DNA of 64,000 nucleotides from an uncultured Thermoplasmata archaeon. Lineage in GTDB: Archaea > Thermoplasmatota > Thermoplasmata > Halarchaeoplasmatales > Halarchaeoplasmataceae. This document shows, piece after piece, positions 14,417 to 61,313 of the stretch. A model generated the notes under the pieces. The model was given only the letters and a program-made list of their open reading frames with translations. It searched no databases and was not told the DNA's origin. The stretch is taken from positions 5,674 through 69,673 of the forward strand of contig CAYMXS010000005.1 of assembly GCA_964394465.1 (NCBI GenBank), in the 5' to 3' direction. Numbering within the stretch: position 1 is the first letter of the stretch; the number at the start of each line of letters is the position of its first letter. The position numbers and the translations under genes are program-made.

Positions 14417-14920
14417 TCATTCCTTCCTTACTACCCAAAGGCTGGTTTTCTTCTTCTGAGAGCCGATCATCCCGTTCTGTACCGCGGTGATGATCATCTT
14501 TCCGTTCTCCTGGTTGGGTTCGAGCCTTATGTCCTCCTTATCCAGTACTACGGATATCTGGCCAGTGTAATTAGTCGTACCTGAAGCGTCTGCACCGCAT
14601 CCCGTTATATGAACGTCTATATTCTGCATGGGGTCTCCGTTCTCATCCCGTACATAGACCACTATATACGGATCATCGTCAGGTTTGGCGGTTCCGTCGT
14701 CCAAGATACGGTCACACTCCAAGGGCGCATCCGGCCTACCGCCGTACCTGTGTGTTACTTTTGCCTCGACTCTATCTATCGTTGGAGAGGAAGTCACCAG
14801 GAATCCCAGTATGGCACTCAATGAAACAACGGCGATCAGCACGATCAGAAGAATATAGAGCGGTATACCCATGATCTGGCCGCTCTGGTCACCTTTCAAT
14901 CTCCGGGGTATATCTCTCAT
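14417..14920 (-). CDS. Hypothetical membrane-anchored protein
   Basis: 167-aa ORF with one N-terminal TM (IPLYILLIVLIAVVSLSAILGFLV) and a probably beta-rich ectodomain. No recognised motif. Confidence 0.45.
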   Translation of the reverse strand: MRDIPRRLKGDQSGQIMGIPLYILLIVLIAVVSLSAILGFLVTSSPTIDRVEAKVTHRYGGRPDAPLECDRILDDGTAKPDDDPYIVVYVRDENGDPMQNIDVHITGCGADASGTTNYTGQISVVLDKEDIRLEPNQENGKMIITAVQNGMIGSQKKKTSLWVVRKE

Positions 14921-19178: not shown

Positions 19179-19844
19179 TCAGATAAAGGACTGGAAAGGT
19201 CCTAAGAAATAGCCTGCGGCTAAGGTTCCACCTATGAGAACTATCAGCATCAGATAGGCCGTTCCGCTCCAGCTGAATATCTTGCGGCCGTCTAACGGCC
19301 CCAGCGGTAAAAGGTTGAAACCGCCGATGAATAGGTTGACGAATGCCACAAAGGCCAGTACGAAGCTGAAGAAAGACGAAAGAGGGAGTGAGAGTGAACT
19401 CAAAACTAGCGAGCCAGCTAAAAAGCCGATGCCGACGAAGCCGTTGGTGGCTGGACCCGCCGCTGAGATCTTTCCGTTCTCCTCTTTGCTAACATGACCC
19501 CTTATCATCACGGCGCCCGGAGCGGCGAAAACGAAGCCGAATAGGCTCATCCCTAGAGCCATTATCAGGCCCATGCGCCACATCCTGAACTCCGCCCAGC
19601 AGCCGTAATCTCTGGCAAGTTTACGATGGGCTAACTCGTGGAATAAAAAAGCGGTCCCTACGGATAGGAGAGAGATACCCAGGAAGATAGGAAAATTAGG
19701 GCTTGTTATACCGTTGATACCTCCGGTAAAAGCTAGAGCAAAGGCAAGAGTCAGAACACCCAGAGCTATAGCTAGATGTTTCTTCTCCGTCGAACTCATG
19801 CCGCCTTGCTTTACATCTACGGTCATATTGTACTGTGGTCTCAT
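19179..19844 (-). CDS. Site-2 protease family metalloprotease (peptidase M50)
   Basis: HELAHRKLAR (HExxH) and NLLPLGPLDGRK motifs in a polytopic membrane ORF. Confidence 0.8.
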   Translation of the reverse strand: MRPQYNMTVDVKQGGMSSTEKKHLAIALGVLTLAFALAFTGGINGITSPNFPIFLGISLLSVGTAFLFHELAHRKLARDYGCWAEFRMWRMGLIMALGMSLFGFVFAAPGAVMIRGHVSKEENGKISAAGPATNGFVGIGFLAGSLVLSSLSLPLSSFFSFVLAFVAFVNLFIGGFNLLPLGPLDGRKIFSWSGTAYLMLIVLIGGTLAAGYFLGPFQSFI

Positions 19845-21247
19845 CTATCTCTCACCTCTTCTTTGAACAGTTTTTCTATCCTTTTTACGGCTTCCTTCTC
19901 CCCTTCAAATTCATCCAATGATATCTTACCTCCTCCAGAGTGCCTGTGACCTCCCGCCTCACCTATCTCGGAGAAGGCCCTCTTCATCTTACCGCCTATG
20001 TTCTTACTCAAATCTTTACATCGAGCGGACATATATATATCGTTTCCCAAGATACCATAAACAAGTATTGTCGCGGCGTCTTCTTCTCTCATCAGTAATT
20101 CAACGACCTGGCTCAGGTCGTCCCTATCGTTTATCTCTCCCGCGAAAGCCATCAAAAGTCCATGGTCCATCTTCCTGTTCTGGATGGCACGGCCCAACAC
20201 GTCGATGGTCTCTGGATTCAGAGGGGGACTCTCAAATATATCCAGGAGTTCTTCGTCAGCTAACGCGCCGAGATAAGTTATCGCCTTATAATCAGCGGGA
20301 TACACGTTCTTTGTATAATCATGGGTGTCGACCTTTATCCCGTAGAGGAGGGCTGAAGCCAGTAAGGGATCGATCTCCATATCTAGGTCCTGTAGATGTC
20401 TGGTCATCAATGTAGAGGTAGCTCCTACATCGCTCCTTACCTGGACGAACCTTCCCTCGTAGATATCCTTGTTCGTGTAGTGATGATCCAGGATTATATC
20501 TGGCTTGATATCCTCGGGAACTATGTTGTTGACTGAAGCTTGAGCGAAATCGACGAAAACGACCTTATCATGATCGGACAGAAGTCCCTTCACTTCGTTG
20601 CTATCAACCCTCTCCATCTCGAAGCCAGTATTAGCGATGAAGGCCTCGTTCTCCGGATGTCCAACGGTGCCGCCGTGAAACGTTGTAGAGTCCGTTCCGG
20701 CTTTTTCGCATATCTTCTCCAGGGCCATGGCGGACGCCATGGCATCTGGGTCTGGATCGTCGTGTATGAATACAGCTAATCTCTCACCCTCAGATATGGC
20801 TTTGAAAAGTTTCTTGCTCTCCCTTTTAAACTTCAAACGCTCGAGGGTACAGAGTAAACCCTGGATCGCTTTTTCTAACGAAGTAACCGCGGCTTCAAGG
20901 TCAGTCTGTTTTAGCCCTTCTTCAGGGGACCCCTCGGCGAAGAGTATCATGGGTACATCAGGAGCGAACTGTTTTTTCTGCTGGATGAATTCCTCTATCT
21001 TATCCGATGAAAGCCCGGTCAGGATGATCACAGTATCCTCTGGAGTACCGGCCCCTCTCTTCATCAGCGCCTGGGTCTGCTCTATCAGATCCGTAATATC
21101 TGTACCTGTGATGGACCTTAGAGCGGTTTTATCGGTATAACCTTTAAGCTCCCGTTTCAACCTCTCAGTAGAAGTCTTATCACCGACCAAAAGTAGATCG
21201 AAGTCGGTCACAGCGCTGGTCTTCACAGAACTGGTCTCATCAAGCAT
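19841..21247 (-). CDS. DHH/DHHA1 phosphoesterase with an N-terminal degenerate receiver-like region
   Basis: DHH motifs FIHDDPDPDAMASA, VDFA and LDHHYT. DHHA1 GGHRHSGGG near the C-terminus. About 150 aa of N-terminal extension. Confidence 0.8.
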   Translation of the reverse strand: MLDETSSVKTSAVTDFDLLLVGDKTSTERLKRELKGYTDKTALRSITGTDITDLIEQTQALMKRGAGTPEDTVIILTGLSSDKIEEFIQQKKQFAPDVPMILFAEGSPEEGLKQTDLEAAVTSLEKAIQGLLCTLERLKFKRESKKLFKAISEGERLAVFIHDDPDPDAMASAMALEKICEKAGTDSTTFHGGTVGHPENEAFIANTGFEMERVDSNEVKGLLSDHDKVVFVDFAQASVNNIVPEDIKPDIILDHHYTNKDIYEGRFVQVRSDVGATSTLMTRHLQDLDMEIDPLLASALLYGIKVDTHDYTKNVYPADYKAITYLGALADEELLDIFESPPLNPETIDVLGRAIQNRKMDHGLLMAFAGEINDRDDLSQVVELLMREEDAATILVYGILGNDIYMSARCKDLSKNIGGKMKRAFSEIGEAGGHRHSGGGKISLDEFEGEKEAVKRIEKLFKEEVRDR

Positions 21248-22040
21248 CTACTACCTCGTCGAATTCCGCCTTAATCTTCTCTAGGAACTTGTCCTTCACG
21301 GCTTTACTTGAAACAGATAAGAGGAAAAAACCCCTCTGTCCACTTGAACCCCTGCCGGCCACTCTATCGCGTGCCCAACTGAGGAAATTGAAGATCTTCT
21401 TCCTCTCCGAGAAGTTCGTCATGGAAGAGAGACCGGATATGAACACCACACACTCTCCCTTCTCCTTCTCGAAGCTTCCGATAACGCTTGATAGCGCCGA
21501 GAGATTCGACGGCGATACCTTCCTGCCGTCCATACCCTCTATCTTCGGGGAATCGCTACCCCCCTTAGAGAGCCAGATGAACTCGCAGTTCTCCTTCGGT
21601 ATTTGGTATTTATCGACGGCCTTATCCGGAGATGCCCTCGAGATGAAAAGGCCAGGGACTCCTTCTTTCAGCAGCCTAGAGAACTCTTTAAAACCCCTAC
21701 TCGGCCTCTCCTCCATTATGATACAGGAGTCGCCTGGGTTCCAATCTATGCCTTTTCTCTTCTCAGTCTTTTGGTCTTTTTTCTGCTCCTCTTCTTTTTC
21801 CTGGTCCTTCGAGCTTTCCTTTTCCAAAACCTCGATAGATTCCATGAAGTCCGGGTCTTTCTTCACTTCGGCCCGCTTGGCCTTCACGTCCTGATAGAGG
21901 GTGCCTATCTTGCTTTCGACCCTGCTCTTCAATTCCCATCCGTCGTGATGAGATATGAGATTCTGGACCTCTTTCCAGGCTTCCTTTTGGCCCCTCTTGT
22001 ATCCCTGGATGTATATCTCGATGTAATCTTCCTTGTCCAT
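21240..22040 (-). CDS. DUF835 domain protein
   Basis: C-terminal half carries SCIIMEERP...GLFISRASPDK...FIWLS and VVFISGLSSM, colinear with the DUF835 domain of the 644-1621 protein. 8-nt overlap with the DHH gene. Confidence 0.7.
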   Translation of the reverse strand: MDKEDYIEIYIQGYKRGQKEAWKEVQNLISHHDGWELKSRVESKIGTLYQDVKAKRAEVKKDPDFMESIEVLEKESSKDQEKEEEQKKDQKTEKRKGIDWNPGDSCIIMEERPSRGFKEFSRLLKEGVPGLFISRASPDKAVDKYQIPKENCEFIWLSKGGSDSPKIEGMDGRKVSPSNLSALSSVIGSFEKEKGECVVFISGLSSMTNFSERKKIFNFLSWARDRVAGRGSSGQRGFFLLSVSSKAVKDKFLEKIKAEFDEVVDA

Positions 22041-28826: not shown

Positions 28827-30542
28827 ATGATGAGAGAAGAGGATAGATCAGAAACATATCCGATAAAAAGGATAGACGATCCGCAACAGCGTCTAGTGTA
28901 TCTAAAAAAGCCCCTCTTAGTTATCATTGTACTCGTACTTCTGTTCTCTGTCTTTATCTCTCCAGTGTTTTGTAATCTTACTGACGGGTCGAACCAGGAG
29001 CAGAGACCCACTGTCAAGGTCGGGATATATGATGACTATCCCGTGGTTTATTCCAAGGATGGAAAGGCTAAAGGTATCTATGTGGAGATACTAGAAAAGG
29101 TAGCCAAAGAAGAGAACTGGAAAATAGAATATATAAATCAGAACTGGGAACGTTCTCTCCAGCTTTTGGAAAACGGAAGTATAGACATCATGACGGGCAT
29201 CGCCTACAGCCAGGAGAGGACGGATAGGTTCAAATTCTCTAAAGAGACGGTATTATCCAACTGGGGACAGGTCTACATTCAACAGAATTCCAATATCGAA
29301 TCGTTCGAAGACCTGGAGAGTAAAAAGATAGCTGGCATGGAAGGAGACGTGTACTATGAAGGGGAGAAGGGGATCAAAAACCTGTTGGAACGTTTCAACA
29401 TAAATGCAACATTTGTTGAGTATCAGGAAAATTCTCAAGTCCTTAAGGCTATCGAAAACGGGAGCGCAGATGCTGGGGTGGTCACCCGACTCTACGGAGA
29501 GCGGAAGGAAAGCAGTTTTTCAGTGGAAAAAAGCCCCATTATCTTCAGTCCTACAGAACTTCGCTTTGCTTTCCCAAAGAATAGTGATTCCGATCATCTC
29601 ATGGAGAGGATAGACGAAAATTTGAGAGAGATGAAAAAGAACCCTGATTCGACTTACTACCGGGCACTGGAGCAATACCTTTCTAGTGGCTCCGATGAAG
29701 GAGGAGGACAAAAACACGTGATGCCGATTTGGGCCGAGCAATTATTGTTCATAGGTGGCATTCTACTAGGATTTTTAGCCTTGATTTCCGTCATATTCAG
29801 GAGACAGCTAAAGAAGAAAACCGAGGAGTTAGGCAAGATAAATATAAGGTTGAACGAGCATATCAGGGAGAAAGAGGAAGCGGAGAAGAGGGAGGAATTC
29901 TTCCATACTCTTCTAAGACAGGATCTGAGAAGCAAGACCCAGCTTTCTCTTGGATACTTGAACCTACTGGAGGAACATCTAGATAAAAAGGAGCTCTCTG
30001 AAGAAGAAAGAGAGGTATTGGAAAAGGCCAAAGATAATACATTGGACGGATTGAACCTGATTCACCAGGTCAAACAGGTCAGAGCCGTAGAGAACATGGA
30101 AGGCAGAGGAAAGATCAAGCTCCAGAAGGTCATCGGAGATGCTTTGGAGGATAACGAAAACCTCTTAAAAAGAAAAAATGTAGAGATAAAACTTGAAGAG
30201 GACGACCCTATAATCGAAGGAAACTATTACCTTTCAGACCTTTTCTCTAACTTCATAAGGATGAGAGCGAGCGATAAATCCTGCAACATGATCGACATAA
30301 GAATAGTGGAGAAAAAGAAAAAAGTATTCGTCACGATGGATGATGACGGGAGAAAGTTCCCTAAAGATATGAAAAAGGACATAATGAATAGACCTTACAA
30401 CGGAAGGACGACCGGCTTCGGGGGCATACGGTTCTATCTCGCTCGAAGGATCGCCGATAAAGAGGATATAGATATCAAATTGAAGGACTCGAGCATGGGG
30501 GGCGGAAGGATAGAGATATGGCTGGATAAACCGACGGACTGA
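28827..30542 (+). CDS. Sensor histidine kinase with an extracytoplasmic solute-binding (SBP family 3-like) domain
   Basis: N-terminal TM, then a periplasmic binding-protein-like region of about 240 aa (VKVGIYDDYPVVY...), a second TM, a coiled coil with FHTLLRQDLRSK (H-box-like), and a C-terminal GFGGIRFYLARRI G-box. Confidence 0.7.
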   Translation: MMREEDRSETYPIKRIDDPQQRLVYLKKPLLVIIVLVLLFSVFISPVFCNLTDGSNQEQRPTVKVGIYDDYPVVYSKDGKAKGIYVEILEKVAKEENWKIEYINQNWERSLQLLENGSIDIMTGIAYSQERTDRFKFSKETVLSNWGQVYIQQNSNIESFEDLESKKIAGMEGDVYYEGEKGIKNLLERFNINATFVEYQENSQVLKAIENGSADAGVVTRLYGERKESSFSVEKSPIIFSPTELRFAFPKNSDSDHLMERIDENLREMKKNPDSTYYRALEQYLSSGSDEGGGQKHVMPIWAEQLLFIGGILLGFLALISVIFRRQLKKKTEELGKINIRLNEHIREKEEAEKREEFFHTLLRQDLRSKTQLSLGYLNLLEEHLDKKELSEEEREVLEKAKDNTLDGLNLIHQVKQVRAVENMEGRGKIKLQKVIGDALEDNENLLKRKNVEIKLEEDDPIIEGNYYLSDLFSNFIRMRASDKSCNMIDIRIVEKKKKVFVTMDDDGRKFPKDMKKDIMNRPYNGRTTGFGGIRFYLARRIADKEDIDIKLKDSSMGGGRIEIWLDKPTD

Positions 30543-30603
30543 AGGTAAAAGAGTCGATTGCCATTAAGAAATTTCTTATATCGCGTTTCCCTTTTTATAG
30601 ACG

Positions 30604-33600
30604 ATGATCTCCTCAACGGGTAGAGAAAGGATACTGCTGCTTCTCCAGAACTTCTCGGATATCGAAAAACGGAAGGAGGTGCCTTACCACACATCTCAGG
30701 CCGGCATATCAGAAGGCGTTGACCTATCACAGACCAGAGTGAGCAGATTGATGAAGGACATGATAGAGGATGACCAGATCAAAGAGCTCAAAAAACACGT
30801 GAAGGGCCTGAAGCGGAGAAGGAAGGTCTACGGTTTGACTCATCAGGGAGAGCGGAAAGCTGGGGATATCAGAGAGAAACTTATGGATGAAAAAGTTTCC
30901 ATCAGAACGAGTTCTGGGAAAAAAGAGATCAGACTCGAAGAGATAGACAGTTATATCGATTCTAGGTACCCCACTGTGGAGGCATTAGTTCGCCTTGAAG
31001 AGAGAGATATTATAGATACGAGCGAGGAGAAAAAGAAAAGAGAAGATGTGTTCGTTGGAAGGAAAGAAGAGCTTGGAGAACTTATCTCCTCAATAGAAAA
31101 CGTGGAAGAGATAGGATGCTCGGTCGTCTTCATCCAGGGTGAAGCGGGGATAGGAAAAACAAGGCTGGTCTCTGAGTTCAAAATGCATGCGGCAGAGAGG
31201 GGTTTTAACTTCCTTGTCGGGAACTCTTATTATGAATCCTCCGACCCTTATCTGCCCTTGAAAGAAGCATTCCAAGAGTATATGGATAGGAGCTTCGAGG
31301 GTTATGATGAAGGTCTGGTCTCTAGTCTTGTAGACCTGACTAGAGAGGGACCGAGGCCCGAGGATAGAAAGATGTTCGATGCCCAGAGGAAATCGGCTTT
31401 CTATGAGAGTACACAGGAGGTCAAGAAGATAGCTGAAAAAAACCCTCTAGTCATATTTCTAGATGATCTACAGTGGGCAGACAGAGCCTCTCTAGAGATC
31501 TTTCATTACATGATCCAGCACCTGAAAGACGCTCCGGTCCTTTTCATCGGTGCCTTCAGGCCAGAGGAGATCGGCCGAGAACATCCACTCTCGGAGGTGC
31601 TTCAAAGGATATCCTATTCGGAGAGAGAACGATCAAAGAAGATCGAGCTAGACAGGCTTGGAGAAGGGGAAACAAGAGAGATAATAGAGGGACTGGTTGA
31701 CAGTGAAGATGTATCCGAAGGTTTCGTCGATCTACTACATTCTAGGTCAGAAGGTAATCCCCTTTTCATTAAGGAATGCGTAGGGGAGATGCAGGAGAAC
31801 GGGAGCCTAGACCCTGTTGAAGGTAGATATCCATCTTCAGAAGATGATTTCAGCATACCGTCGCTGATCAAGGATATAATCTCTAGGCGGGTAGACCGAC
31901 TGGACAGAGAGACGAGAAAGATACTGCAGGTCGGGAGTGTGATCGGAGAGAAGGTTCCCTTTCCGATACTCCTGGAGACATCAGGGATGGACGAACTTGA
32001 TATGCTGGACCATATAGACATACTGCAGGAAAGCAGACTCTGGATAGAGGATCCAGACGAAGAGAGGTTGGACTTCACCCATGAGTTAGTCCGGAACTCA
32101 GTCTATCAGGATATTCCCGAGCCGGTCAAACTCTCTCTGCATGAAAAAGTAGCAGGAAAGATCGAGTCAATATACGAGGAGCGGTTGAACGAATTCTATT
32201 CAGATTTGGGCTACCATTATAAGAAGGCTGACATCTCCATGAGCTCATTCAAGTATTATCTTAAAGCGGCTGAGGAAGCCGAGAATGTATACGCTCATGA
32301 GAACGCCATCGATTTTTATGATGAAGCTCTAGATATAGCCCCTGATGAAGAGGACCGATTGAACGCGTTAGAGGGTCTGAGCGATGTTAACCGGGTATTG
32401 GGGGAGTATGAAACGGCAAGAGGATACCTAGAGGAAGGCCTAGAAATCACAGAGAGTATCGAAACGAAACAGCGTCTTTATCGAAAACTGGGAAAGACCT
32501 GGGAAAGACAGAGCCAATATGATAAAGGCTTGGAGATGATCGAAAGGGGGTTGAACCTTTCAAACAAGAGAAACCTAGAACGGTCAAGGCTGCTTTCCAA
32601 CAGAGGTTGGATGATGATGAGGATGAGGGAATACGAAGAAGCAGTGGAGGCCATAGAAGAGGGAAAGGATATAGCAGAGGACCTGAACGATAAGAGACAG
32701 ATAGCTCAATGTCTACATCACCTTGGTTCGGTCTTGTTTTACGAAGCGAAGTTCGATAAAGCTCTAGATAATTTAAGTCGCTCTCTGGAACTTAGAGAGG
32801 AGACGGAGGAAGAAAGGGAGCGGGCGGCCACCCTAAATAATATCGGAGCCATCTATGGACAGTTGAACGAATTGGGCAAGGCTTTAGAGCATCACGAAAA
32901 GGCCTTGGAGATCAGAAAAAGGATAGGAGACAAATCCGGTATATCGGGCTCTCTGAACAATCTAGGAGTGATACATTTCAACAGATCCGAGTATGAACAG
33001 GCTATCGACTATTTTGAAGAGAGCCTTGAACTTACTAGGAGGATAGGAGACAGATCTGGCGTCGCCTTCGCTCTCAATAACATAGGCATGGTCAGCCTTG
33101 AAAGAGGAGAGCCTGAAGAAGCTGCAAAACGGTTCAAAAAGAGCATCGAGGTCTGTGACGAGATAGACGATAAGCTCACTAAGGCCGGTTCTTTGAACAA
33201 CCTCGGGTTATATCATCATTCGATGGGAGAACTCGACCAGGCTTTAGACTTGCTCAAAGATAGCCTGGGGATACGGGAAAAAGTGGGTGACCAGAGTGGT
33301 AAAGCATCCTCTCTAGCCAATATCGGAGATGCCCTCTATGAAAAACAAAAATATGACGAATCTGAAAAAAATTATGAGAAGAGTTTGAAGATATGCAGGG
33401 AGCTAGGTGATATGGAGCAACTGGTCAACGGCCTACAGGGCCTTGCAAAGGTGAAGGCCAAGAATGATGAAAATGAGAAGGCATTGGAAATCATAGAAGA
33501 AGCCATAGAGACCAGTGGAAAGTTAGATTCCCCAGAAAAGGAAAAGACCAGCTACTTGGTCAGATCACTCATAAACCGGAAGAAAGGCGATCTTGAGAAA

Positions 33601-33816
33601 GCCAAAGAGGATATAGAGAAAACTAAAGCCTCGGTCTCCAAAGATGATCGTGATGTATGGGGCAAGATTCGCTTCCATGAAGGCTTGGTTCTCAAAGAAT
33701 TGGGGTCCAAGATGGAGGCAAAAGAGAGGCTAAAAGAGGCCGTCGACCTGTTCCAAAAGAGGGGGATGAAACTCTGGGCAGACAAAACGAAAGAGGAGTT
33801 GGATAGCCTTGGTTAG
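30604..33816 (+). CDS. STAND-type NTPase with N-terminal winged HTH and C-terminal TPR array (MalT/AAA_16-like regulator)
   Basis: wHTH-like first 100 aa or so. Walker A GEAGIGKTRL, Walker B VIFLDDLQWAD. At least 10 TPR units with a recurring LNN(I/L)G...Y...A pattern. 1070 aa. Confidence 0.8.
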   Translation: MISSTGRERILLLLQNFSDIEKRKEVPYHTSQAGISEGVDLSQTRVSRLMKDMIEDDQIKELKKHVKGLKRRRKVYGLTHQGERKAGDIREKLMDEKVSIRTSSGKKEIRLEEIDSYIDSRYPTVEALVRLEERDIIDTSEEKKKREDVFVGRKEELGELISSIENVEEIGCSVVFIQGEAGIGKTRLVSEFKMHAAERGFNFLVGNSYYESSDPYLPLKEAFQEYMDRSFEGYDEGLVSSLVDLTREGPRPEDRKMFDAQRKSAFYESTQEVKKIAEKNPLVIFLDDLQWADRASLEIFHYMIQHLKDAPVLFIGAFRPEEIGREHPLSEVLQRISYSERERSKKIELDRLGEGETREIIEGLVDSEDVSEGFVDLLHSRSEGNPLFIKECVGEMQENGSLDPVEGRYPSSEDDFSIPSLIKDIISRRVDRLDRETRKILQVGSVIGEKVPFPILLETSGMDELDMLDHIDILQESRLWIEDPDEERLDFTHELVRNSVYQDIPEPVKLSLHEKVAGKIESIYEERLNEFYSDLGYHYKKADISMSSFKYYLKAAEEAENVYAHENAIDFYDEALDIAPDEEDRLNALEGLSDVNRVLGEYETARGYLEEGLEITESIETKQRLYRKLGKTWERQSQYDKGLEMIERGLNLSNKRNLERSRLLSNRGWMMMRMREYEEAVEAIEEGKDIAEDLNDKRQIAQCLHHLGSVLFYEAKFDKALDNLSRSLELREETEEERERAATLNNIGAIYGQLNELGKALEHHEKALEIRKRIGDKSGISGSLNNLGVIHFNRSEYEQAIDYFEESLELTRRIGDRSGVAFALNNIGMVSLERGEPEEAAKRFKKSIEVCDEIDDKLTKAGSLNNLGLYHHSMGELDQALDLLKDSLGIREKVGDQSGKASSLANIGDALYEKQKYDESEKNYEKSLKICRELGDMEQLVNGLQGLAKVKAKNDENEKALEIIEEAIETSGKLDSPEKEKTSYLVRSLINRKKGDLEKAKEDIEKTKASVSKDDRDVWGKIRFHEGLVLKELGSKMEAKERLKEAVDLFQKRGMKLWADKTKEELDSLG

Positions 33817-33839
33817 GATAAGATTGATAAAACAGGCTC

Positions 33840-33851
33840 AAATTATATATG
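33840..33851 (+). promoter_or_regulatory. TATA-like box upstream of the receiver-PAS gene
   Basis: aaattatatatg lies about 35-40 nt upstream of ATG 33884. SD gaggtga at 33871-33877. Confidence 0.4.
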
Positions 33852-33883
33852 TGATAAATTTAATTTAATAGAGGTGAGTCGAG

Positions 33884-34816
33884 ATGAGAGTGCTATTGAT
33901 CGATGACGAGGAGTTCATTCTTAGCAGGATTAAATCTGGCCTCGAGGAGATAGATGATTTTGATCTTGAAGTGGACACCTCTCTTAAGGCCAAGAACGCC
34001 CTAGATAAAGTCAAAGAAAACGGGTATGTCGCCGTGGTCTCAGACTATATGTTGGAGGATATGGACGGGCTGGAATTGCTGAAAGAATTGAAACAGATCA
34101 GAGAAGATATCCCATTCATCCTTTTGACCGGAAAAGGACATGAAGATGTGGCCATGGAAGCGCTGAATCTTGGAGCCGAAAGATACCTGACGAAGGAGAA
34201 AGCGGCGGAGTCTGGCTTTAAAAGATTGGCTGAAGCTATAAACGACGTTGTCGAGAGAAAAGAGATCACGAAGGAGTTGAAGAAAAAGGAACAGATGTAC
34301 AGGACAGTTTTCGAGAACACTGGTACAGCGATCGCTCTCATCGATGACGATTTCAATATATCGGTCGCGAACAGAAAATTCCATAAGCTGATCGGTTTCT
34401 ATGAGGAGGATGTAACAGGAAGGTCCCTGTTGGATTTCATAGTCGAAGAGGATAGGAAAAGGATAAAAGACTATACTAGGGAACAGCAAGAGGAAACAGA
34501 CGAAATGCCCAGACACATAGATATGCAGTTGAAAACCAAACACGATGACCTGATACATGTACTCGGGAGGATTAGTTCTATCCCGGACACGAACAAGAGT
34601 CTGGTATCATATATAGATATGAGTGAGAGAAAGGAGTTCAAGGACATATACAAGATGATGTCCGCGAAGGAACTCGATGAACAGCTAGAATATCTCTCTT
34701 CAAAGGTTCAACGTCTTAAGGACTCCGATATCTCTCAGGAACAGACAGACATAATAAAAGAGGTCGAATCAACGGTGAAAAAGATTATGAATATATGTGA
34801 AGAGGCAAAACGATAG
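33884..34816 (+). CDS. Response regulator: receiver plus PAS domain, no recognisable DNA-binding output
   Basis: VLLIDDEEF and VVSDYMLEDMDG receiver motifs. PAS-like region (YRTVFENTGTAIALIDDDFNI...). Coiled-coil tail. Confidence 0.8.
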   Translation: MRVLLIDDEEFILSRIKSGLEEIDDFDLEVDTSLKAKNALDKVKENGYVAVVSDYMLEDMDGLELLKELKQIREDIPFILLTGKGHEDVAMEALNLGAERYLTKEKAAESGFKRLAEAINDVVERKEITKELKKKEQMYRTVFENTGTAIALIDDDFNISVANRKFHKLIGFYEEDVTGRSLLDFIVEEDRKRIKDYTREQQEETDEMPRHIDMQLKTKHDDLIHVLGRISSIPDTNKSLVSYIDMSERKEFKDIYKMMSAKELDEQLEYLSSKVQRLKDSDISQEQTDIIKEVESTVKKIMNICEEAKR

Positions 34817-44712: not shown

Positions 44713-46596
44713 TCACATGAATCCCAAGAACACTATTATGAATATGGCGATCAGAAGACCAAAGATAGCGAAGGTCTCCGACATAACGCTGAATATCATA
44801 CCTTTACCGAAGGTCTCCTCACGCTTGGAGACCGCTGCGATAGCCGAGCCGGATGTGATACCCTGACCGACTCCCGAGACACCGGATACACCTATGGCCA
44901 TGCCTGCACCTATGGCCGCTATGCCCATGCCGACTCCGGCATCGACCGGGAAGTTGCCTCCCAGCATGCCGCTGAAGACCATCAGAAGGATGGATATGAG
45001 CATGCCGTATATGGCCTGGGTCTCTGGCAAGACTGAAAAGACCATGCCTCTACCGAACATGGACTCGTCTTCCGCCACCGTTGCTATCCCGCTGGCGGCC
45101 GCGACTCCCTGGCCTATACCCGAGAGACCGGCTACACCGACAGAAAGGCCGGCGCCCACTCCGACCAGACCGAGGAACAGCTGAATATCGGAGGAGAACC
45201 CGAGCAGACCGCCTCCGCCCAGAAGTCCGCTGAAGATCATGAGTAAGATGGCTATCAGCATGCCGTATATAGCTTGAGTTTCTGGTAGAACTGAAAAGAC
45301 CATACCTCTACCGAATATGTCCTCTTTCTCGGCGACGCTGCCTATCCCTGAAGCGGCTGCTATGCCCTGACCTATTCCCGAGAGTCCGGCTACACCGACT
45401 GCAAGACCGGCGCCTATGCCTATCAGACCTAGACTGTATCCGGGCAGACCGGCCATTATGTCTTTCGCCCCTCCACCCAGTAAACCGGTGAAGACCATCA
45501 GTAAGATGGCTATCAGCATACCGTATATAGCTTGTGTCTCTGGTAGAACTGAAAAGACCATGCTCTTGCCGAAGAGGTCTTCTCTCTCCGCGACGCTGCC
45601 TATACCTGCACCGGCCGCTATACCCTGTCCGACTCCGGACAGTCCGGCCACACCGACGGCGAGACCGGCACCGATGGTCACGACGGCTAATCCCAAACCT
45701 TTGGCACCCAGCATGTCAGCGGAGATGCCACCGCCGAGAAGACCGGTGAACACCATTATCAAGATGCCGACCAAGAGACCATAGATCGCCTGTGTCTCTG
45801 GTAGAACTGAAAAGACCATGCCTTTACCGAAGAGCTCTTCCTTCTCGCTGTAGGAAGCTATACTTCCGGAAGCCGCGACGCCCTGGCCTATGGCGGAAAG
45901 ACCGGCTATGCCGACCGCAAGGCCCACGCCTATAGAGGCTAGACCGATAGGTAAAGGAACGTATCCGCCGCCTCCGATTATGCCCGTGAAGAGTAACAGG
46001 AGTACGGCCGTTAATAATCCATAGATAGCCTGGGTCTGTGGAAGTGCTTGGAAGACCAGGCACTTGCCGAACTTCTCCGGCTTCTCAGCTATCGTCCCAG
46101 CACCGGCTGCCCCGGCTATACCTACACCTATACCGGCACCCATCCCGGCTATACCGACTGCAAGACCGGCTCCTAAAGCCGTTAGAAAAGTACCTCTCTC
46201 ATCCTTCTGCAGATCGATGTGTACGGTGTCTTCGTAACTCCTATTGTTGGATTCTACCGTCAGATTCACCCTGTACTGACCCTCCGTTTCGTACGTGTGG
46301 GTGACGTTTTTCTCCGTTGAGGAGGTACCGTCACCGAAGGTCCAGTTGATCGTGGCATTGTCCAGGTCGATATTATGTGATGATATGGAGAATTCTACAT
46401 CCTTTGATTTGTCCAGGGATTGATAAACCGTCTTGTTGGCCCCCGGGTCTTCTCCCTCGATCATTATATCCACTTTGCCCATGGACTGCTCCTGAGCGGT
46501 GGTGGAGACGGTCCCGAACAGTATGGTAAGGGCCACTATCAGGGTCGTCAAGAGTAAAAATACCCTTCCGTTCTCGAAACTTTTCTTGACACTCAT
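44713..46596 (-). CDS. atpK: A-type ATP synthase proteolipid subunit K: signal peptide + PKD domain + six fused c-subunit hairpins
   Basis: Residues 1-35 form a signal/TM segment and residues 41-128 or so are PKD-like (INWTFGDGTSSTEKNVTHTYETEGQYRVNLTV). Six repeats of G-rich helix / loop / (V/A)LP(E/Q)TQAIYG helix follow. Sits in the operon between atpI and atpE. Confidence 0.9.
   Translation of the reverse strand: MSVKKSFENGRVFLLLTTLIVALTILFGTVSTTAQEQSMGKVDIMIEGEDPGANKTVYQSLDKSKDVEFSISSHNIDLDNATINWTFGDGTSSTEKNVTHTYETEGQYRVNLTVESNNRSYEDTVHIDLQKDERGTFLTALGAGLAVGIAGMGAGIGVGIAGAAGAGTIAEKPEKFGKCLVFQALPQTQAIYGLLTAVLLLLFTGIIGGGGYVPLPIGLASIGVGLAVGIAGLSAIGQGVAASGSIASYSEKEELFGKGMVFSVLPETQAIYGLLVGILIMVFTGLLGGGISADMLGAKGLGLAVVTIGAGLAVGVAGLSGVGQGIAAGAGIGSVAEREDLFGKSMVFSVLPETQAIYGMLIAILLMVFTGLLGGGAKDIMAGLPGYSLGLIGIGAGLAVGVAGLSGIGQGIAAASGIGSVAEKEDIFGRGMVFSVLPETQAIYGMLIAILLMIFSGLLGGGGLLGFSSDIQLFLGLVGVGAGLSVGVAGLSGIGQGVAAASGIATVAEDESMFGRGMVFSVLPETQAIYGMLISILLMVFSGMLGGNFPVDAGVGMGIAAIGAGMAIGVSGVSGVGQGITSGSAIAAVSKREETFGKGMIFSVMSETFAIFGLLIAIFIIVFLGFM
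44716..46190 (-). repeat. Six tandem intragenic repeats (about 240-258 bp each) encoding c-subunit hairpins
   Basis: The string tctgg(t/c)a(g/a)(a/g)actgaaaagaccat recurs at 45023, 45281, 45539 and 45797, exactly 258 bp apart. Diverged copies lie near 44775 and 46035. Confidence 0.9.
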
Positions 46597-57624: not shown

Positions 57625-58404
57625 ATGTCTGAAGAGCAGATGACCATAATACCTGACAGGAAAAGAGAGAGATGCGTCACGGGTATCGAGGGACTCGATA
57701 CCATACTGAACGGGGGTATACCTAGGGGTAATTCTGTGCTCGTGACCGGGAGTTGTGGAACCGGCAAGACTACGATGAGTTTGGAGTTCCTAGTACATGG
57801 GGCGTTGAAGGATGAGAACTGCCTCTTCTTCTCGGTCACCGAGGCCTCTAGAAAGATGTTGAATAATGTAGTCCCCTATGATTTCTTCGAGCAGTCGTTG
57901 GTGGATGAGGGAAAGCTCTCCTTCATCGACATGCCGGACATCTACGAACAGTTGGGCTTGTTAGAGAAGAGCGAGTTCTCGTTCCAGGAGATAGACGAAC
58001 TGGTCGAAGTTATCGGTAAAAAGGTCGAAGAGAAGAATGTAAAAAGATTGGTCATAGACTCCGTCACATCGGTCTGTTTTCAATTAAAAACGGAGGAGAA
58101 GATCCGAGATTTCATCCTGAAACTCATGAAGACCCTCTCATCTCACGGCTGCACATCTCTGCTTGTCTCCGAGATATCTCCGGAGGAACCCCGTTATTCC
58201 CTGTACGGTGTGGAGGAAGCCATCGCGGACGGGATAATCTTGATGGGAAATATGGAGAGGCACGGAGATCTTCTGAGAACATTACAGGTAGTCAAGATGA
58301 GAGGAACCGACCATTCCAGAGCCAAATACGTGCTCGACCTGACACCGGTGGGCGTACTGCTCGTACCACTTTTGAAGGGCGGCGGCATAGAGGGGGTGGA
58401 ATAG
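57625..58404 (+). CDS. KaiC/RecA-like single-domain ATPase
   Basis: GIEGLDTILNGGIPRGNSVLVTGSCGTGKTT (Walker A) and RLVIDSVTS (Walker B). 259 aa. Confidence 0.85.
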   Translation: MSEEQMTIIPDRKRERCVTGIEGLDTILNGGIPRGNSVLVTGSCGTGKTTMSLEFLVHGALKDENCLFFSVTEASRKMLNNVVPYDFFEQSLVDEGKLSFIDMPDIYEQLGLLEKSEFSFQEIDELVEVIGKKVEEKNVKRLVIDSVTSVCFQLKTEEKIRDFILKLMKTLSSHGCTSLLVSEISPEEPRYSLYGVEEAIADGIILMGNMERHGDLLRTLQVVKMRGTDHSRAKYVLDLTPVGVLLVPLLKGGGIEGVE

Positions 58405-58406
58405 AC

Positions 58407-58982
58407 ATGCTGAAGCCCTCTGAACTTGCCGATAAACTGGAGACCATCGAGCCAGGTTCTGCAATAGCCTTAAAATTCGACGTTGATTCCTACTTCGATA
58501 TCGTTACCACCTTGACAGACGATTTTCCGGGGAACAGGGACATGCAGGTGATCTACACGTCCTCGACGATCTCATCCCAGACCACGATCCAGGTGTTGAA
58601 AGCCTTCGATATAGACAGGAGCGATATCAGATTCGTGGATGCGGTCTCTTACATGACAATGGGGTCTGCGGAAAAGGCGGAAGGCGTGACGTACGTGGAA
58701 AGCCCGACCATGCTCGAGAACATAATGCTCAAGATCGAGTACCTCTTCAAGAAGTACCCCAGCGAAGAGAACACCGTGGTGATAGACTCCATAGATTCCT
58801 TAGCGATACATAACAACAACAGGATCCTCTCAGAGTTCCTCCACATCCTGATATCGAACCTCAGGTCTTACGACTGCTACACCATAATACTCTCTGGCTT
58901 CGAGCAGGAATCCGAGGAGATAGACAACATGCTGGCCATGGTGTGCGACGACGTCCTGGAAGTCAAAGCGTCAGAGGACTAG
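58407..58982 (+). CDS. Walker-A-less KaiC/RecA-like (DUF835-like) paralog
   Basis: Starts 2 nt after the KaiC-like stop. Colinear with the RecA-like fold (SAIALKFDVDS in place of the P-loop, then VVIDSIDSL and CYTIILSG strands), but has no GxxGxGKT. Confidence 0.55.
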   Translation: MLKPSELADKLETIEPGSAIALKFDVDSYFDIVTTLTDDFPGNRDMQVIYTSSTISSQTTIQVLKAFDIDRSDIRFVDAVSYMTMGSAEKAEGVTYVESPTMLENIMLKIEYLFKKYPSEENTVVIDSIDSLAIHNNNRILSEFLHILISNLRSYDCYTIILSGFEQESEEIDNMLAMVCDDVLEVKASED

Positions 58983-59049
58983 TTTTTAAGTCTGAAGTTG
59001 ATGAATCACGATAAAACATAAATAATTTATACTCGCATAGGCTTAACAC

Positions 59050-59071
59050 GGGACGTAAAAGTCTCAGGAGG
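59050..59071 (+). promoter_or_regulatory. Leader hairpin plus SD upstream of pilin paralog 1
   Basis: GGGAC-gtaaaa-GTCTC (5 bp including one G-U), followed directly by AGGAGG, 9 nt before the ATG. An A/T box aaataatttatac lies about 25-30 nt upstream. Confidence 0.5.
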
Positions 59072-59080
59072 ACCAAACTT

Positions 59081-59575
59081 ATGAGAAAAATAAAAAGAGA
59101 AGACGAAGGTGTGTCGCCCGTTATAGCTACCATCCTTATGGTGGCTATAACCGTGGTTCTGGCAGCGACCTTATACATGATGCTGCCCAAAAGCCAAGAC
59201 ACCGAAACGACTGAAGCGATGTCCGGTAGGGTCAACGAAGTCAGTGACGGTTGGATAATACAGATAGACGCTGGTTCAGTTACTTGGGGCTCAGACAAAC
59301 CAATGATGTACAATACTAGCTCTGGTGCATCTTATAGCCTGAGCGCTGGGACAGACGCTAGCTCGTTTACCGGTCAATCACTGAATATTGATACAAATAG
59401 CGCCGACGAGGTTGAACTAACCTTCAATGATAATAATAACAACCAGAAAATAGACGGTGGAGACAGCTTTAAGATAACATACCTCGACGGTACTGCCGAT
59501 TTCTCCCAAGACTATATCCAGGATCACTATGAGTTCAGAATCTCCGGAACCAACCTAGCTGTTCCATTGGCATAA
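59081..59575 (+). CDS. Archaeal type IV pilin-like protein (class III signal peptide), paralog 1
   Basis: MRKIKREDEG-VSPVIATILMVAITVVLAATLYMM N-terminus. The C-terminal domain is shared with paralogs 2 and 3. Confidence 0.85.
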   Translation: MRKIKREDEGVSPVIATILMVAITVVLAATLYMMLPKSQDTETTEAMSGRVNEVSDGWIIQIDAGSVTWGSDKPMMYNTSSGASYSLSAGTDASSFTGQSLNIDTNSADEVELTFNDNNNNQKIDGGDSFKITYLDGTADFSQDYIQDHYEFRISGTNLAVPLA

Positions 59576-59601
59576 GATAGACACACCAAACTTGAAAACC
59601 C

Positions 59602-59627
59602 TTTCTTTTTTCTTTTGTTTTTGATTT
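59602..59627 (+). terminator. Oligo-T terminator after pilin paralog 1
   Basis: tttcttttttcttttgtttttgattt lies 27 nt after the stop. Archaeal RNAP terminates at T tracts. Confidence 0.5.
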
Positions 59628-59747
59628 CGTGCTCTAGTTTACTAAAACCAATCCGCGACTGTATTCTATTTTGATCTCTACAACTAAAGAAGATTTTTGA
59701 TAAATATGCATAATCCTTAAATAATTAAAGTGAGGATGATTTTTATT

Positions 59748-59769
59748 GGGGCGTAAAAGTCCCAGGAGG
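59748..59769 (+). promoter_or_regulatory. Leader hairpin plus SD upstream of pilin paralog 2
   Basis: GGGGC-gtaaaa-GTCCC (5 bp; the G-U position differs from paralog 1, so the pairing is preserved), followed by AGGAGG, 9 nt before the ATG. Confidence 0.5.
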
Positions 59770-59778
59770 ACTTAACCT

Positions 59779-60300
59779 ATGAGGGAGATAAAAAGAGACA
59801 CCTCTGGTGTGTCTCCAGTTATAGCTACCATCCTCATGGTGGCTATAACGGTGGTTCTGTCCGCCACCCTGTATATGATGATCGATCCGGGGGACCAAAC
59901 AGAACCACCAGAAGCCATGTCTGGCAGGATAAACTCTGTCAGCGATGGTTGGGTCGTACAGGTAGACGCCGGCTCGGTATCCTGGAACACGGAGAAACCT
60001 ATATTCTATAACGTGAGTTCCGGCGCATCCTATAAGACCAGTGGCACGGGAGACTTCGAAGCGGACACGGTAGCAAATGCAGCACAGTTCGACGTGAACG
60101 GAGGCGGTACAGCCGATCTCTGGGTACTGTGGAACGACAACAACGACAACGACGACATAGACGGTGGAGACAGCTTCAAGATAACGTACAACGACGATAC
60201 CAGTACTATCTCCGGTGAGGCAGATATCTCAAAAGGATACCTGGAGAACCACTACGAGTTCCGGCTGTCCAACACCAATCTAGGCGTTTCGCTGGGCTGA
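59779..60300 (+). CDS. Archaeal type IV pilin-like protein, paralog 2
   Basis: MREIKRDTSG-VSPVIATILMVAITVVLSATLYMM. SGRINSVSDGWVVQVDAGSVSW is shared with paralog 1. Confidence 0.85.
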   Translation: MREIKRDTSGVSPVIATILMVAITVVLSATLYMMIDPGDQTEPPEAMSGRINSVSDGWVVQVDAGSVSWNTEKPIFYNVSSGASYKTSGTGDFEADTVANAAQFDVNGGGTADLWVLWNDNNDNDDIDGGDSFKITYNDDTSTISGEADISKGYLENHYEFRLSNTNLGVSLG

Positions 60301-60330
60301 GGTAACAAAAGATTCAACCATCCAAAACCT

Positions 60331-60350
60331 CTTCCTCTTTTTATTTTTTC
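60331..60350 (+). terminator. Oligo-T terminator after pilin paralog 2
   Basis: cttcctctttttattttttc lies about 30 nt after the stop. Confidence 0.5.
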
Positions 60351-60462
60351 AAGAATTTCCTGAATATAAACTCGTAACTCCTCTTGGGCACTTTTTATCA
60401 TTTCCATTACTATGTTTTGATTAATTGTCCTAACAAATAAATAAGCCATATACCTATGTTCA

Positions 60463-60488
60463 CCTGTAGGTTAGAAACCTACAGGAGG
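60463..60488 (+). promoter_or_regulatory. Leader hairpin overlapping SD upstream of pilin paralog 3
   Basis: CCTGTAGG-ttagaaa-CCTACAGG is a perfect 8-bp stem whose 3' arm supplies the first 3 nt of AGGAGG. 10 nt before the ATG. Confidence 0.55.
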
Positions 60489-60498
60489 ACTCAACCCT

Positions 60499-60951
60499 AT
60501 GATTAAAAGAAGATTGGATAAAAAAGCCGTTTCCCCCGTGATAGCTACCATCCTGATGGTCGCTATCACCGTGGTCTTGTCCGCCACCCTGTATATGATG
60601 ATATCTACCGAGGACAAACCGGAGCAGACCAAAGCCTTGGCCGGTGACCTGAAAGAGGTACAGTACGGATGGCTGATAGAGATACACAGCAGTTCAGGCG
60701 TTCTGTATGACAAGGACAAAGTGCAGATATACAACCCCCAAACGGGTGCAGTTCTAGAGAATGTGACTGAATTTACTGGGGATGGTAATCCACCAGATAT
60801 CGACAGCGACATACATGTCAAGTTCAGGGACAACGACGGCAACGGAGAGATCACCCAAGGCGATACCTTCGTTATCGGAGACCAAAGCGACTACCTAGAG
60901 GACAAGTATAAGTTCAGGATAGACCAGACCACGCTATCTATAAAATTCTAA
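60499..60951 (+). CDS. Archaeal type IV pilin-like protein, paralog 3
   Basis: MIKRRLDKKA-VSPVIATILMVAITVVLSATLYMM. More diverged C-terminal domain carrying DNDGNGEITQGD. Confidence 0.85.
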   Translation: MIKRRLDKKAVSPVIATILMVAITVVLSATLYMMISTEDKPEQTKALAGDLKEVQYGWLIEIHSSSGVLYDKDKVQIYNPQTGAVLENVTEFTGDGNPPDIDSDIHVKFRDNDGNGEITQGDTFVIGDQSDYLEDKYKFRIDQTTLSIKF

Positions 60952-61052: not shown

Positions 61053-61313
61053 ATGGCTAAGAAGAAATCAACTAAATCTAAGAAAAGGGGAGATCAGAGG
61101 AAGAAATCAGCCAAGAAGAAAGCAGACAGAGCTAAGCAGCTCAAGAAACAGGCGAAGTACCAGAAGAAAGCGGCGAAGGAAGACAAGAAGATAGCGAAAT
61201 ACGAGAAGAAGATAGAGAAATACCAGGACAAGATCAAGAAGCACAGGAAGAAGAAAAAGAAGTACGAGAAGAAAGCTAGACAGGCCAACCCCCGAAAATC
61301 CAGCACGACCTGA
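61053..61313 (+). CDS. Small, extremely Lys-rich basic protein (function unknown)
   Basis: 86-88 aa, about 45% Lys, with a recurring KYxKK pattern. An A/T box aaagctttatattg lies about 30 nt upstream. Strong purine strand bias. Coding status is not certain. Confidence 0.45.
   Translation: MAKKKSTKSKKRGDQRKKSAKKKADRAKQLKKQAKYQKKAAKEDKKIAKYEKKIEKYQDKIKKHRKKKKKYEKKARQANPRKSSTT

Follow-up and report, generated by a model that had tools for sequence, protein, structure and literature searches.

Type IV pilus systems of archaea, those of euryarchaeal clade 2 among them, show a strong association with KaiC-family ATPases (Makarova, Koonin and Albers 2016, PMC4858521). In the supplement of that work, the neighbours of FlaI/TadC genes include 'inactivated' KaiC-like genes of RAD55 and DUF835 type, a clade 2 pilus component has a 'KaiC-like protein ATPase' next to it, and several pilus-associated KaiC-like or RAD55-type arCOGs are given (arCOG01171/01174/01175 and arCOG03793). 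A related locus is described here from a 64,000-nt stretch of DNA of an uncultured Thermoplasmata archaeon (assembly GCA_964394465.1, contig CAYMXS010000005.1, positions 5,674 to 69,673 of the forward strand), referred to below as the window. In this locus, a gene for a single-domain KaiC-family ATPase (K1) is followed by a gene for a pseudo-ATPase of the RecA/KaiC fold (P) and by three tandem pilin genes; reading of the open reading frames (ORFs) found all five on the forward strand at the positions given by an earlier, purely sequence-based description of the window (the initial annotation). As in the published KaiC/pilus loci, a single-domain KaiC-like ATPase is accompanied by dead relatives with euryarchaeal PilA-type genes beside them, and in both cases the KaiC-like genes are predicted regulators. 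Unlike in those loci, the K1–P pair is locked to stand-alone pilin genes and not to an ATPase/TadC module, and a fixed order (K1, P and, optionally, a third gene, K2) is conserved across the sampled Thermoplasmata metagenome-assembled genomes (MAGs).

Several other described systems can be compared with this locus. CirA of Haloferax volcanii, a KaiC-like protein connected with suppressors of delta-pilA[1-6], affects arl transcription (PMC10983859), and GvpD is a KaiC-like regulator acting via the gas-vesicle activator GvpE (PMC4858521). CirA shares with K1 the KaiC-like character and is connected genetically with PilA pilins, with the control of motility that depends on them and with transcription of filament genes; cirA, however, is located divergently in the arl region and regulates archaellum genes, and no inactive partner is described for it. 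ArlH/FlaH is likewise a single-domain KaiC-like protein tied to a type IV filament and provides a plausible model of nucleotide control, but K1 falls below the cutoffs of this family, has no arl operon or ArlI neighbour, and possesses a pseudo-ATPase partner that ArlH lacks. Elp4/5/6 and the rings of Rad51 paralogs also mix active and inactive RecA-fold subunits, the resemblance being one of fold and logic only. A 2017 paper on KaiC hubs reportedly discusses inactivated homologs. The fixed K1–P(–K2) set, the fact that it is strictly tied to stand-alone pilin genes throughout Thermoplasmata, and a conserved pilin leader appear to be additional here; the general picture is unchanged, since the association of KaiC-like proteins with archaeal pili had already been predicted.

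The linkage was followed with an alignment of P in one genome per species of the Genome Taxonomy Database (GTDB). Relatives of P were found in 284 genomes, and linkage was counted in 80 loci, all labelled Thermoplasmata, Thermoplasmatota or a synonym, with one contig labelled Aenigmatarchaeota. A K1 ortholog is located directly upstream of P in all 76 loci with room for it, and the two genes overlap by 4–8 nt or are 2 nt apart at every inspected locus. Of the 43 loci that have at least 2.5 kb of downstream DNA, 41 (including L085, where the mechanical ORF start overlaps the end of P) carry one to four pilin genes behind the pair, on its strand and no more than 3.5 kb away; 16 of the 18 shorter loci already reach the start of a pilin gene. 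The genes outside the module vary, with at least seven unrelated upstream contexts (36, 27, 2, 2, 1, 1 and 1 loci) and 11 downstream contexts, and the linkage persists across about 50% protein divergence. The same result is obtained from the pilin side: three pilin homologs (34–56% identity) on contigs with upstream DNA all adjoin K1–P(–K2). With four sequences devoid of the class III motif set aside, two being located outside the module, all matches to the pilin model in about 1.2 Mb of loci are directly downstream of the pair.

Because the linkage spans many flank contexts and is confirmed from the pilin side, the adjacency of K1–P and the pilin genes is not due to chance, and a functional link between them is well supported by gene order. 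The initial annotation had considered that this adjacency might be coincidental in related genomes; the pair and the pilins were found together in almost every one examined. Its proposal of a regulatory or switch module therefore holds as far as the functional link is concerned, which conserved synteny supports, and the switch role itself keeps the standing of a proposal. K1–P is a real, conserved module and probably a regulatory one, with an inferred function.

K1 (57625..58404, forward strand, 259 aa) is a member of the Pfam KaiC family (PF06745; E=4.5e-58, 196.8 bits at a cutoff of 26.6). It carries the Walker A motif GSCGTGKTT, the Walker B motif LVIDSVTS, a single catalytic Glu (TE) and KMRGTDHSR, which includes the trans-acting KxRG residues, in agreement with the initial description of an intact single-domain KaiC ATPase. 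Among 80 K1 orthologs, no change or only two-residue variation is seen in GS[CV]GTGKT[ST], in KMRGT.HSR and in the Glu of 'VTE'. One (T-E-A) of the two glutamates of the KaiC CI domain is retained. The best sequence matches in the PDB are KaiC (8zn5, 2.8e-54), PH0186 (9e-39) and PH0284 (2e-34), the last two being single-domain proteins of Pyrococcus; SSO2452 (9.4e-21), FlaH (4.9e-6) and RecA (N-terminal segment only) match more weakly. K1 thus looks like a CI-type ATPase and is predicted to be active. A weak Pfam match to PAXNEB/Elp4 (4.2e-6) is below the family cutoff.

Two more specific identities for K1 were considered and rejected. The cyanobacterial clock KaiC has two tandem domains (~500 aa), compared with one domain in K1; the NCBIfam KaiC equivalog models give K1 156 and 123 bits, below their cutoffs of 408 and 546, and no KaiB or KaiA gene is evident among the window ORFs read or scanned or in the annotated contexts of relatives. 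ArlH/FlaH is rejected by the scores of NF052589 (42.6 bits, cutoff 215), PRK06067 (57.3 bits, cutoff 194) and PRK08533 (34 bits, cutoff 215), and ArlI- or ArlJ-like genes are found neither in the window nor within 10 kb of the pair in 86 loci.

P (58407..58982, forward strand, 191 aa) starts 2 nt after K1, as previously noted (TAG at 58402–58404, then AC, then ATG at 58407), and its ATG is preceded by the Shine-Dalgarno-like GAGGGGGTGG. Its nearest relatives (74–76% identity) belong to Thermoplasmata MAGs, including 'Candidatus Natronoplasma' and 'Saliniplasma' (order Ca. Halarchaeoplasmatales). In Pfam, P narrowly passes the cutoffs of both DUF7090 (30.4 bits, cutoff 27) and KaiC (29.9 bits, cutoff 26.6), remains under that of DUF7504 (22.2 bits, cutoff 27), and has a weak match to Iki1/Elp5 (4.1e-4), below the family cutoff; it can be described as a protein of DUF7090/DUF7504 type. 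The segments VVIDSIDSL and CYTIILSG are present, and the Walker B Asp (VVIDS) is retained. The GxxGxGK[ST] motif occurs nowhere in P or in 18 aligned homologs. In the AlphaFold2 (AF2) model, built on the alignment of these 18 homologs (pLDDT 89.1, pTM 0.88), the site of the P-loop (strand 19–24 to helix 26–39) reads FDVDSY, and both the model and the alignment are without a catalytic acidic residue or Glu after the second strand.

Membership of P in the RecA/KaiC fold, on which the initial proposal depended, is supported by this confident model. A Foldseek search of the PDB gave matches with a probability of 1.00 to PH0284 (2dr3, TM 0.72), SSO2452 (2w0m), FlaH (4yds), the KaiC CI domain and Rad51/DMC1, and FlaH 4wia is also among the fold matches. 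The fold search alone produced matches, as a profile of the 18 homologs found nothing among PDB sequences at E<=1. P had been called a paralog of K1 without a P-loop; the lost P-loop and the RecA-like fold stand, and the relationship holds at the level of the superfamily only. P is not a recent duplicate of K1, since profile–profile comparison of the two aligned no more than the Walker B region (42 columns, E=0.0023).

Despite overall divergence of about 50%, the blocks VESPTMLEN and DSInSLAIHNN..ILSEFLHIL are invariant in the 18 homologs of P, a pattern to be expected from a conserved interaction surface and not from a gene in decay. The P-domain family is large: an exhaustive profile search recovered 1411 cluster representatives at E<=0.001 and 480 at E<=1e-10. 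The domain is often C-terminal in much larger proteins. Ten of these were scanned; three carry TPR with CARDB/NEW3/TRAP-beta Ig-like domains, three are DUF835 fusions, and four show no extra domain. Entries P0277, P0287, P0298, P0270, P0306 and P0307 of the representative library comprise TPR/Ig-like proteins of 900–1770 aa with a C-terminal P domain and fusions of the domain to DUF835. The TPR/Ig-like proteins and the DUF835 fusions look like sensor-adaptor architectures, and from the distribution of the P-type domain with TPR/CARDB/NEW3 and with DUF835 it would be a signalling adaptor or output domain and not one of DNA repair.

In 15 of the 43 loci, K2 (~241 aa), an additional KaiC-like gene (Pfam KaiC, 2.9e-20), is inserted between P and the pilins. 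Its Walker A motif reads G.PGSGTE, the lysine and the following threonine being lost; the fuller module would consequently comprise one active and two inactive KaiC-fold proteins. K2 was seen at L004 (10584–11306) and at 24 other loci (e.g., L041, L045, L059, L062, L081 and L086). No K2 was found elsewhere in the window, and the halophilic clade to which the window belongs has the two-gene form.

The three genes downstream of P encode pilin 1 (59081..59575, forward strand, 164 aa), pilin 2 (59779..60300, forward strand, 173 aa), a paralog of pilin 1 at 57–59% identity, and pilin 3 (60499..60951, forward strand, 150 aa), a more diverged paralog (42–43% identity to pilin 1). They exceed the cutoffs of Pilin_N (PF07790; 29.6, 25.4 and 33.0 bits for pilins 1, 2 and 3, cutoff 25.2) and of TIGR02537 (46, 41 and 47.8 bits, cutoff 20), which bears out their initial identification as three paralogous pilin genes with class III signal peptides. 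In all three, VSPVIATILMVAITVVL comes after a charged head whose last residue is G or A; the class III sites are ...EDEG/VSPVIATILMVAITVVLAATLY, ...DTSG/VSP... and ...DKKA/VSP..., and the motif is invariant in 27 homologs. The signal peptide and the hydrophobic helix are nearly identical in the three proteins. Assembly into a filament after cleavage by PibD/EppA is predicted.

The closest PDB sequence match of pilin 1 is 8rey, the C. divulgatum pilus subunit (E=1.4e-5), followed by Natrinema PilA2. Its AF2 model (pLDDT 83.6) consists of an N-terminal helix (13–34) and a beta-rich head (a 'lollipop' fold), and in the fold search 8rey was the sole significant match, with the archaellins 5z1l and 7txi next. 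Since 8REY is the closest structure by sequence and the only significant one by fold, the pilins are of PilA/CdiPB type; they are probably major pilins. The window pilins are thus homologous to CdiPB of the CdiP pilus (PDB 8REY, PMC12448462). Their heads have diverged from that of CdiPB, with 20% identity over the Foldseek alignment, and contain the motif NDNxxNxxIDGGD (residues ~113–129 in pilin 1), two Asp of which are invariant in 27 homologs and which resembles a calcium-binding loop. An N-x-S/T sequon is present in each window pilin; those of pilins 1 and 2 align with each other, and that of pilin 3 comes a few residues later.

Each pilin gene is preceded by an intergenic region (98, 203 and 198 nt before pilins 1, 2 and 3) with a common order of elements: a TATA-like box, ~30 nt, a hairpin of 5–9 bp, AGGAGGAC, 7–9 nt and ATG. 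The leader of pilin 1 (59050..59071, forward strand) consists of the hairpin GGGAC-GTAAAA-GTCTC (59050–59065) and AGGAGG (59066–59071), with a TATA-like TTTATA ~30 nt upstream. That of pilin 2 (59748..59769, forward strand) has GGGGC-GTAAAA-GTCCC followed by AGGAGG. In that of pilin 3 (60464..60488, forward strand), the 3' end of a 9-bp hairpin, CTGTAGGTT-AGA-AACCTACAG, overlaps the Shine-Dalgarno sequence AGGAGG.

About 90 pilin leaders of loci L001–L086 were examined with a purpose-made hairpin scan and shuffled controls. A hairpin of at least 5 bp ending 10–17 nt before the ATG occurs in 77 of 93 distinct leaders, compared with 8.6 +/- 2.7 (maximum 15) in shuffled sequences. The stems vary by lineage and keep their pairing (GCAGG/CCTGC, GTAGGC/GCCTAC, GCGGGCC/GGTCCGC, GCGGC/GCCGC, GGGAC/GTCTC). 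RNAalifold gave no consensus on MAFFT-aligned leaders, a limit of the method, as loops and stems of varying length are misaligned. As a rule, the distance from the start of the TATA-like element to the downstream hairpin is 29–33 nt, so that the hairpin coincides with the predicted transcription start or lies close to it. It is probably the 5' end of the pilin mRNA, and such a position suggests an element of mRNA stability or translation.

The genes of pilus assembly would be located elsewhere. Reading of all window ORFs of at least 140 aa revealed no PilB/ArlI ATPase, PilC/TadC platform or A24 prepilin peptidase in the 64 kb; Pfam scans of the membrane and ATPase ORFs of the window found no T2SSE, T2SSF or Peptidase_A24 (the families found in scanned ORFs were CarS, M50, HPP, RDD, ABC-2, DHH and AAA_16-TPR), and a motif screen of the window for secretion ATPases found nothing. 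These three approaches agree with the absence of machinery reported initially. No secretion-ATPase-like gene was detected within 10 kb in any of 86 loci by a motif regex used without a positive control, its sole match across the loci being an ABC transporter ATPase; the absence of machinery is read chiefly from Pfam-annotated contexts. As the window and the flanks of annotated relatives are without PilB, PilC or peptidase, the locus is not a canonical type IV pilus locus.

Euryarchaeal pilin genes are usually stand-alone, often tandem and remote from the operon of the ATPase and platform, as exemplified by Haloferax PilA1-6 and by Cuniculiplasma cdiPA/cdiPB, which are ~500 kb from the machinery (PMC4858521, PMC12448462). 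The window pilins, in tandem and away from the assembly machinery, resemble cdiPA/cdiPB and pilA1-6 in this respect. Since stand-alone pilin genes are the rule in euryarchaea, the missing machinery is ordinary. The initial statement that the arrangement is unlike canonical loci is thus correct as to the lack of machinery nearby, and it loses force as a peculiarity.

The reading favoured here, tentatively, is that K1–P constitutes a switch dedicated to the adjacent pilins, most likely one setting pilin supply. K1 and P would be translated from one tightly coupled transcript and would assemble into a hetero-oligomer acting as a nucleotide-dependent switch, with ATP turnover confined to K1; in many relatives, the second pseudo-ATPase, K2, could join it. 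Such a switch would be dedicated to the PilA/CdiPB-type pilins directly downstream and would set the expression or stability of their separately transcribed mRNAs or of the proteins, acting via a partner protein, as CirA does on arl transcription in Haloferax and GvpD on the activator GvpE. The pili would be assembled by PilB, PilC and PibD encoded elsewhere in the genome. The K1–P complex, its switch behaviour, its target and the direction of regulation are all inferred. Control of pilin supply is preferred to an ArlH-like action because the pair travels with subunit genes and not with the assembly ATPase, because the pilin genes have elaborate signals for their own expression, and because CirA and GvpD act on gene expression via other factors.

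A number of observations weigh against this reading. Each pilin gene has its own TATA-like box, long T-rich runs follow each pilin gene, and a T5 run (TAG TTTTT; 58983..58987, forward strand), which reads as a putative archaeal terminator, directly abuts the stop codon of P; the separate promoters and terminators of the pilins, pointed out from the beginning, were thus recovered at every one of these genes together with their leaders, and the pilin genes look like strong independent transcription units. Because of these signals, co-transcription of K1–P with the pilins is unlikely and synteny is left as the link between them; separate transcription of the pilins means that any such link therefore acts in trans. 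K1 and P both lack a domain for binding DNA or RNA, and the window did not reveal a partner. The positions of the phosphorylation sites S431/T432 of the KaiC CII domain align with E-A in K1, so a clock-like phosphorylation cycle is unsupported by its sequence. Two loci, L044 and L079, contain the K1–P pair without a detected downstream pilin. Two upstream contexts dominate (36 and 27 loci), and part of the conservation could for this reason be inherited gene order. Finally, DNA of the locus is known solely from sediment and hypersaline-lake DNA metagenomes, and the recorded occurrences of the exact pilin 3 protein are confined to contigs of at most 2.2 kb.

Some of these observations lend themselves to other explanations. 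The want of a DNA-binding domain would suit protein–protein action, and it is possible, although rather doubtful, that a K1–P(–K2) ring is an accessory comparable to ArlH, binding the PilB-type ATPase or the PilC platform and gating assembly post-translationally, and is encoded with the subunits only since the pilin locus is a mobile, duplicating part. K1, P and ArlH/FlaH share the KaiC/RecA fold, the two FlaH structures being among the fold matches of P, and a nucleotide-dependent interaction of ArlH with ArlI is described in the literature (PMC12448462, PMC4858521). Yet K1 is no ArlH ortholog by the family scores given above, its match to FlaH in the PDB is far weaker than that to KaiC (4.9e-6 versus ~1e-54), and the 86 loci yielded no secretion-ATPase-like gene within 10 kb, whereas ArlH adjoins ArlI. 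Separate transcription of the pilins, the concentration of most loci in two synteny groups and the two loci retaining the pair without a pilin would all be compatible with a general KaiC signalling or housekeeping pair that has no dedicated link with pili and merely retains an ancestral gene order in Thermoplasmata; archaeal KaiC-like genes are numerous and have many roles (PMC4858521). Such an explanation is improbable, as the linkage outlasts the changes of upstream and downstream context, variation in pilin copy number from 1 to 4 and the appearance of a K2 gene in the gap between P and the pilins; moreover, nearly all pilin-model matches in the ~1.2 Mb are directly downstream of the pair, and look-ups from the pilin side return it.

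Two further possibilities have very low probability. The K1–P(–K2) hetero-ring could be an RNA-binding switch on the stem-loop of the pilin leader, with ATP turnover by K1 controlling translation or decay, by analogy with the Elp4/5/6 ring, which acts on tRNA; this is a highly speculative variant, and we know of no such post-transcriptional mechanism described for the KaiC family. K1 and P could also be recombination mediators of RadA-paralog type which cooperate with the pili during DNA exchange or repair, similarly to the UV-inducible Ups pili. SSO2452 (the aRadC protein of Sulfolobus), Rad51, DMC1 and RecA are indeed among the sequence and fold matches of K1 and P, but K1 is much nearer to KaiC (2.8e-54) than to SSO2452 (9.4e-21) or RecA, P-type domains are fused to TPR/sensor-like regions and DUF835 and not to DNA-binding modules, and the annotated contexts of the loci contain no DNA-transfer genes.

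Small genes accompany the pilins on their 3' side. An extremely Lys-rich protein of ~80 aa (KKQAKYEKKAAKEEKKI..YE.KI.KY) is encoded at 61053..61313 (forward strand) in the window and in one to three tandem copies in the halophilic clade; 25 homologs are located directly downstream of pilins in loci L001–L039, and no Pfam family was matched. It looks like a coiled-coil protein and gives the impression of contrasting with an otherwise acidic-reading proteome; its membership of the module is uncertain. In the K2 clade, a protein of 78–83 aa (CPDQTVIFLTKMKKKGLIKGE..E.RGW.W) is encoded at L004 (13717–13953) and in at least 16 other loci, 24–186 nt past the last pilin gene. With a weak MarR match only (E=0.17), it looks winged-helix-like and could be a DNA-binding output of the module. 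No homolog of it was found in the window.

The gene content of the window reads as archaeal. Other window genes include two that encode DUF835 proteins (644–1621, forward strand, and 21240–22040, reverse strand). In one of the two proteins DUF835 is joined to a response-regulator receiver domain; the gene of the other is just upstream of one for a DHH-family phosphoesterase (19841–21247) on the same strand. Since an arCOG of the DUF835 family is labelled 'Inactivated KaiC-like ATPase' (PMC4858521 supplement), the genome would carry several KaiC-derived signalling parts. The small product of the ORF at 14417–14920 (reverse strand) has ...GQIMGIPLYILLIVLIAVV in its N-terminal segment and contains an Ig-like domain; similar ORFs are located by the KaiC pair of L044 (12047–12985, reverse strand), a locus without standard pilins, and the protein might be minor-pilin-like. 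A signalling cluster at 28827–34816 (forward strand) comprises a histidine-kinase-like protein with a periplasmic-binding domain, a 1070-aa AAA_16 and TPR protein (MalT-like) and a receiver-PAS-like protein; the 1070-aa protein is covered by Pfam, the other two are described from their translations, and no evidence ties the cluster to K1–P. An A-type ATPase proteolipid of 627 aa (44713–46596, reverse strand) contains six ATP-synt_C hairpins (E=4.7e-96, six stretches) preceded by an N-terminal PKD domain and represents an unusual fused, multiplied c subunit.

To our knowledge, KaiC-like proteins are the main suspected hubs of archaeal signalling, few of them having a defined target. The partner P is encoded in 284 species-level genomes, and the module is conserved in the sampled Thermoplasmata genomes. 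The analysis gives provisional names to several 'hypothetical' families of uncultured Thermoplasmata, and the conserved leader of the pilin mRNA may be of use in expression studies. With one predicted active ATPase, one or two dead partners and adjacent pilin genes as a candidate output, the locus would offer a clean test case for the role of KaiC-like proteins in the control of archaeal pili.

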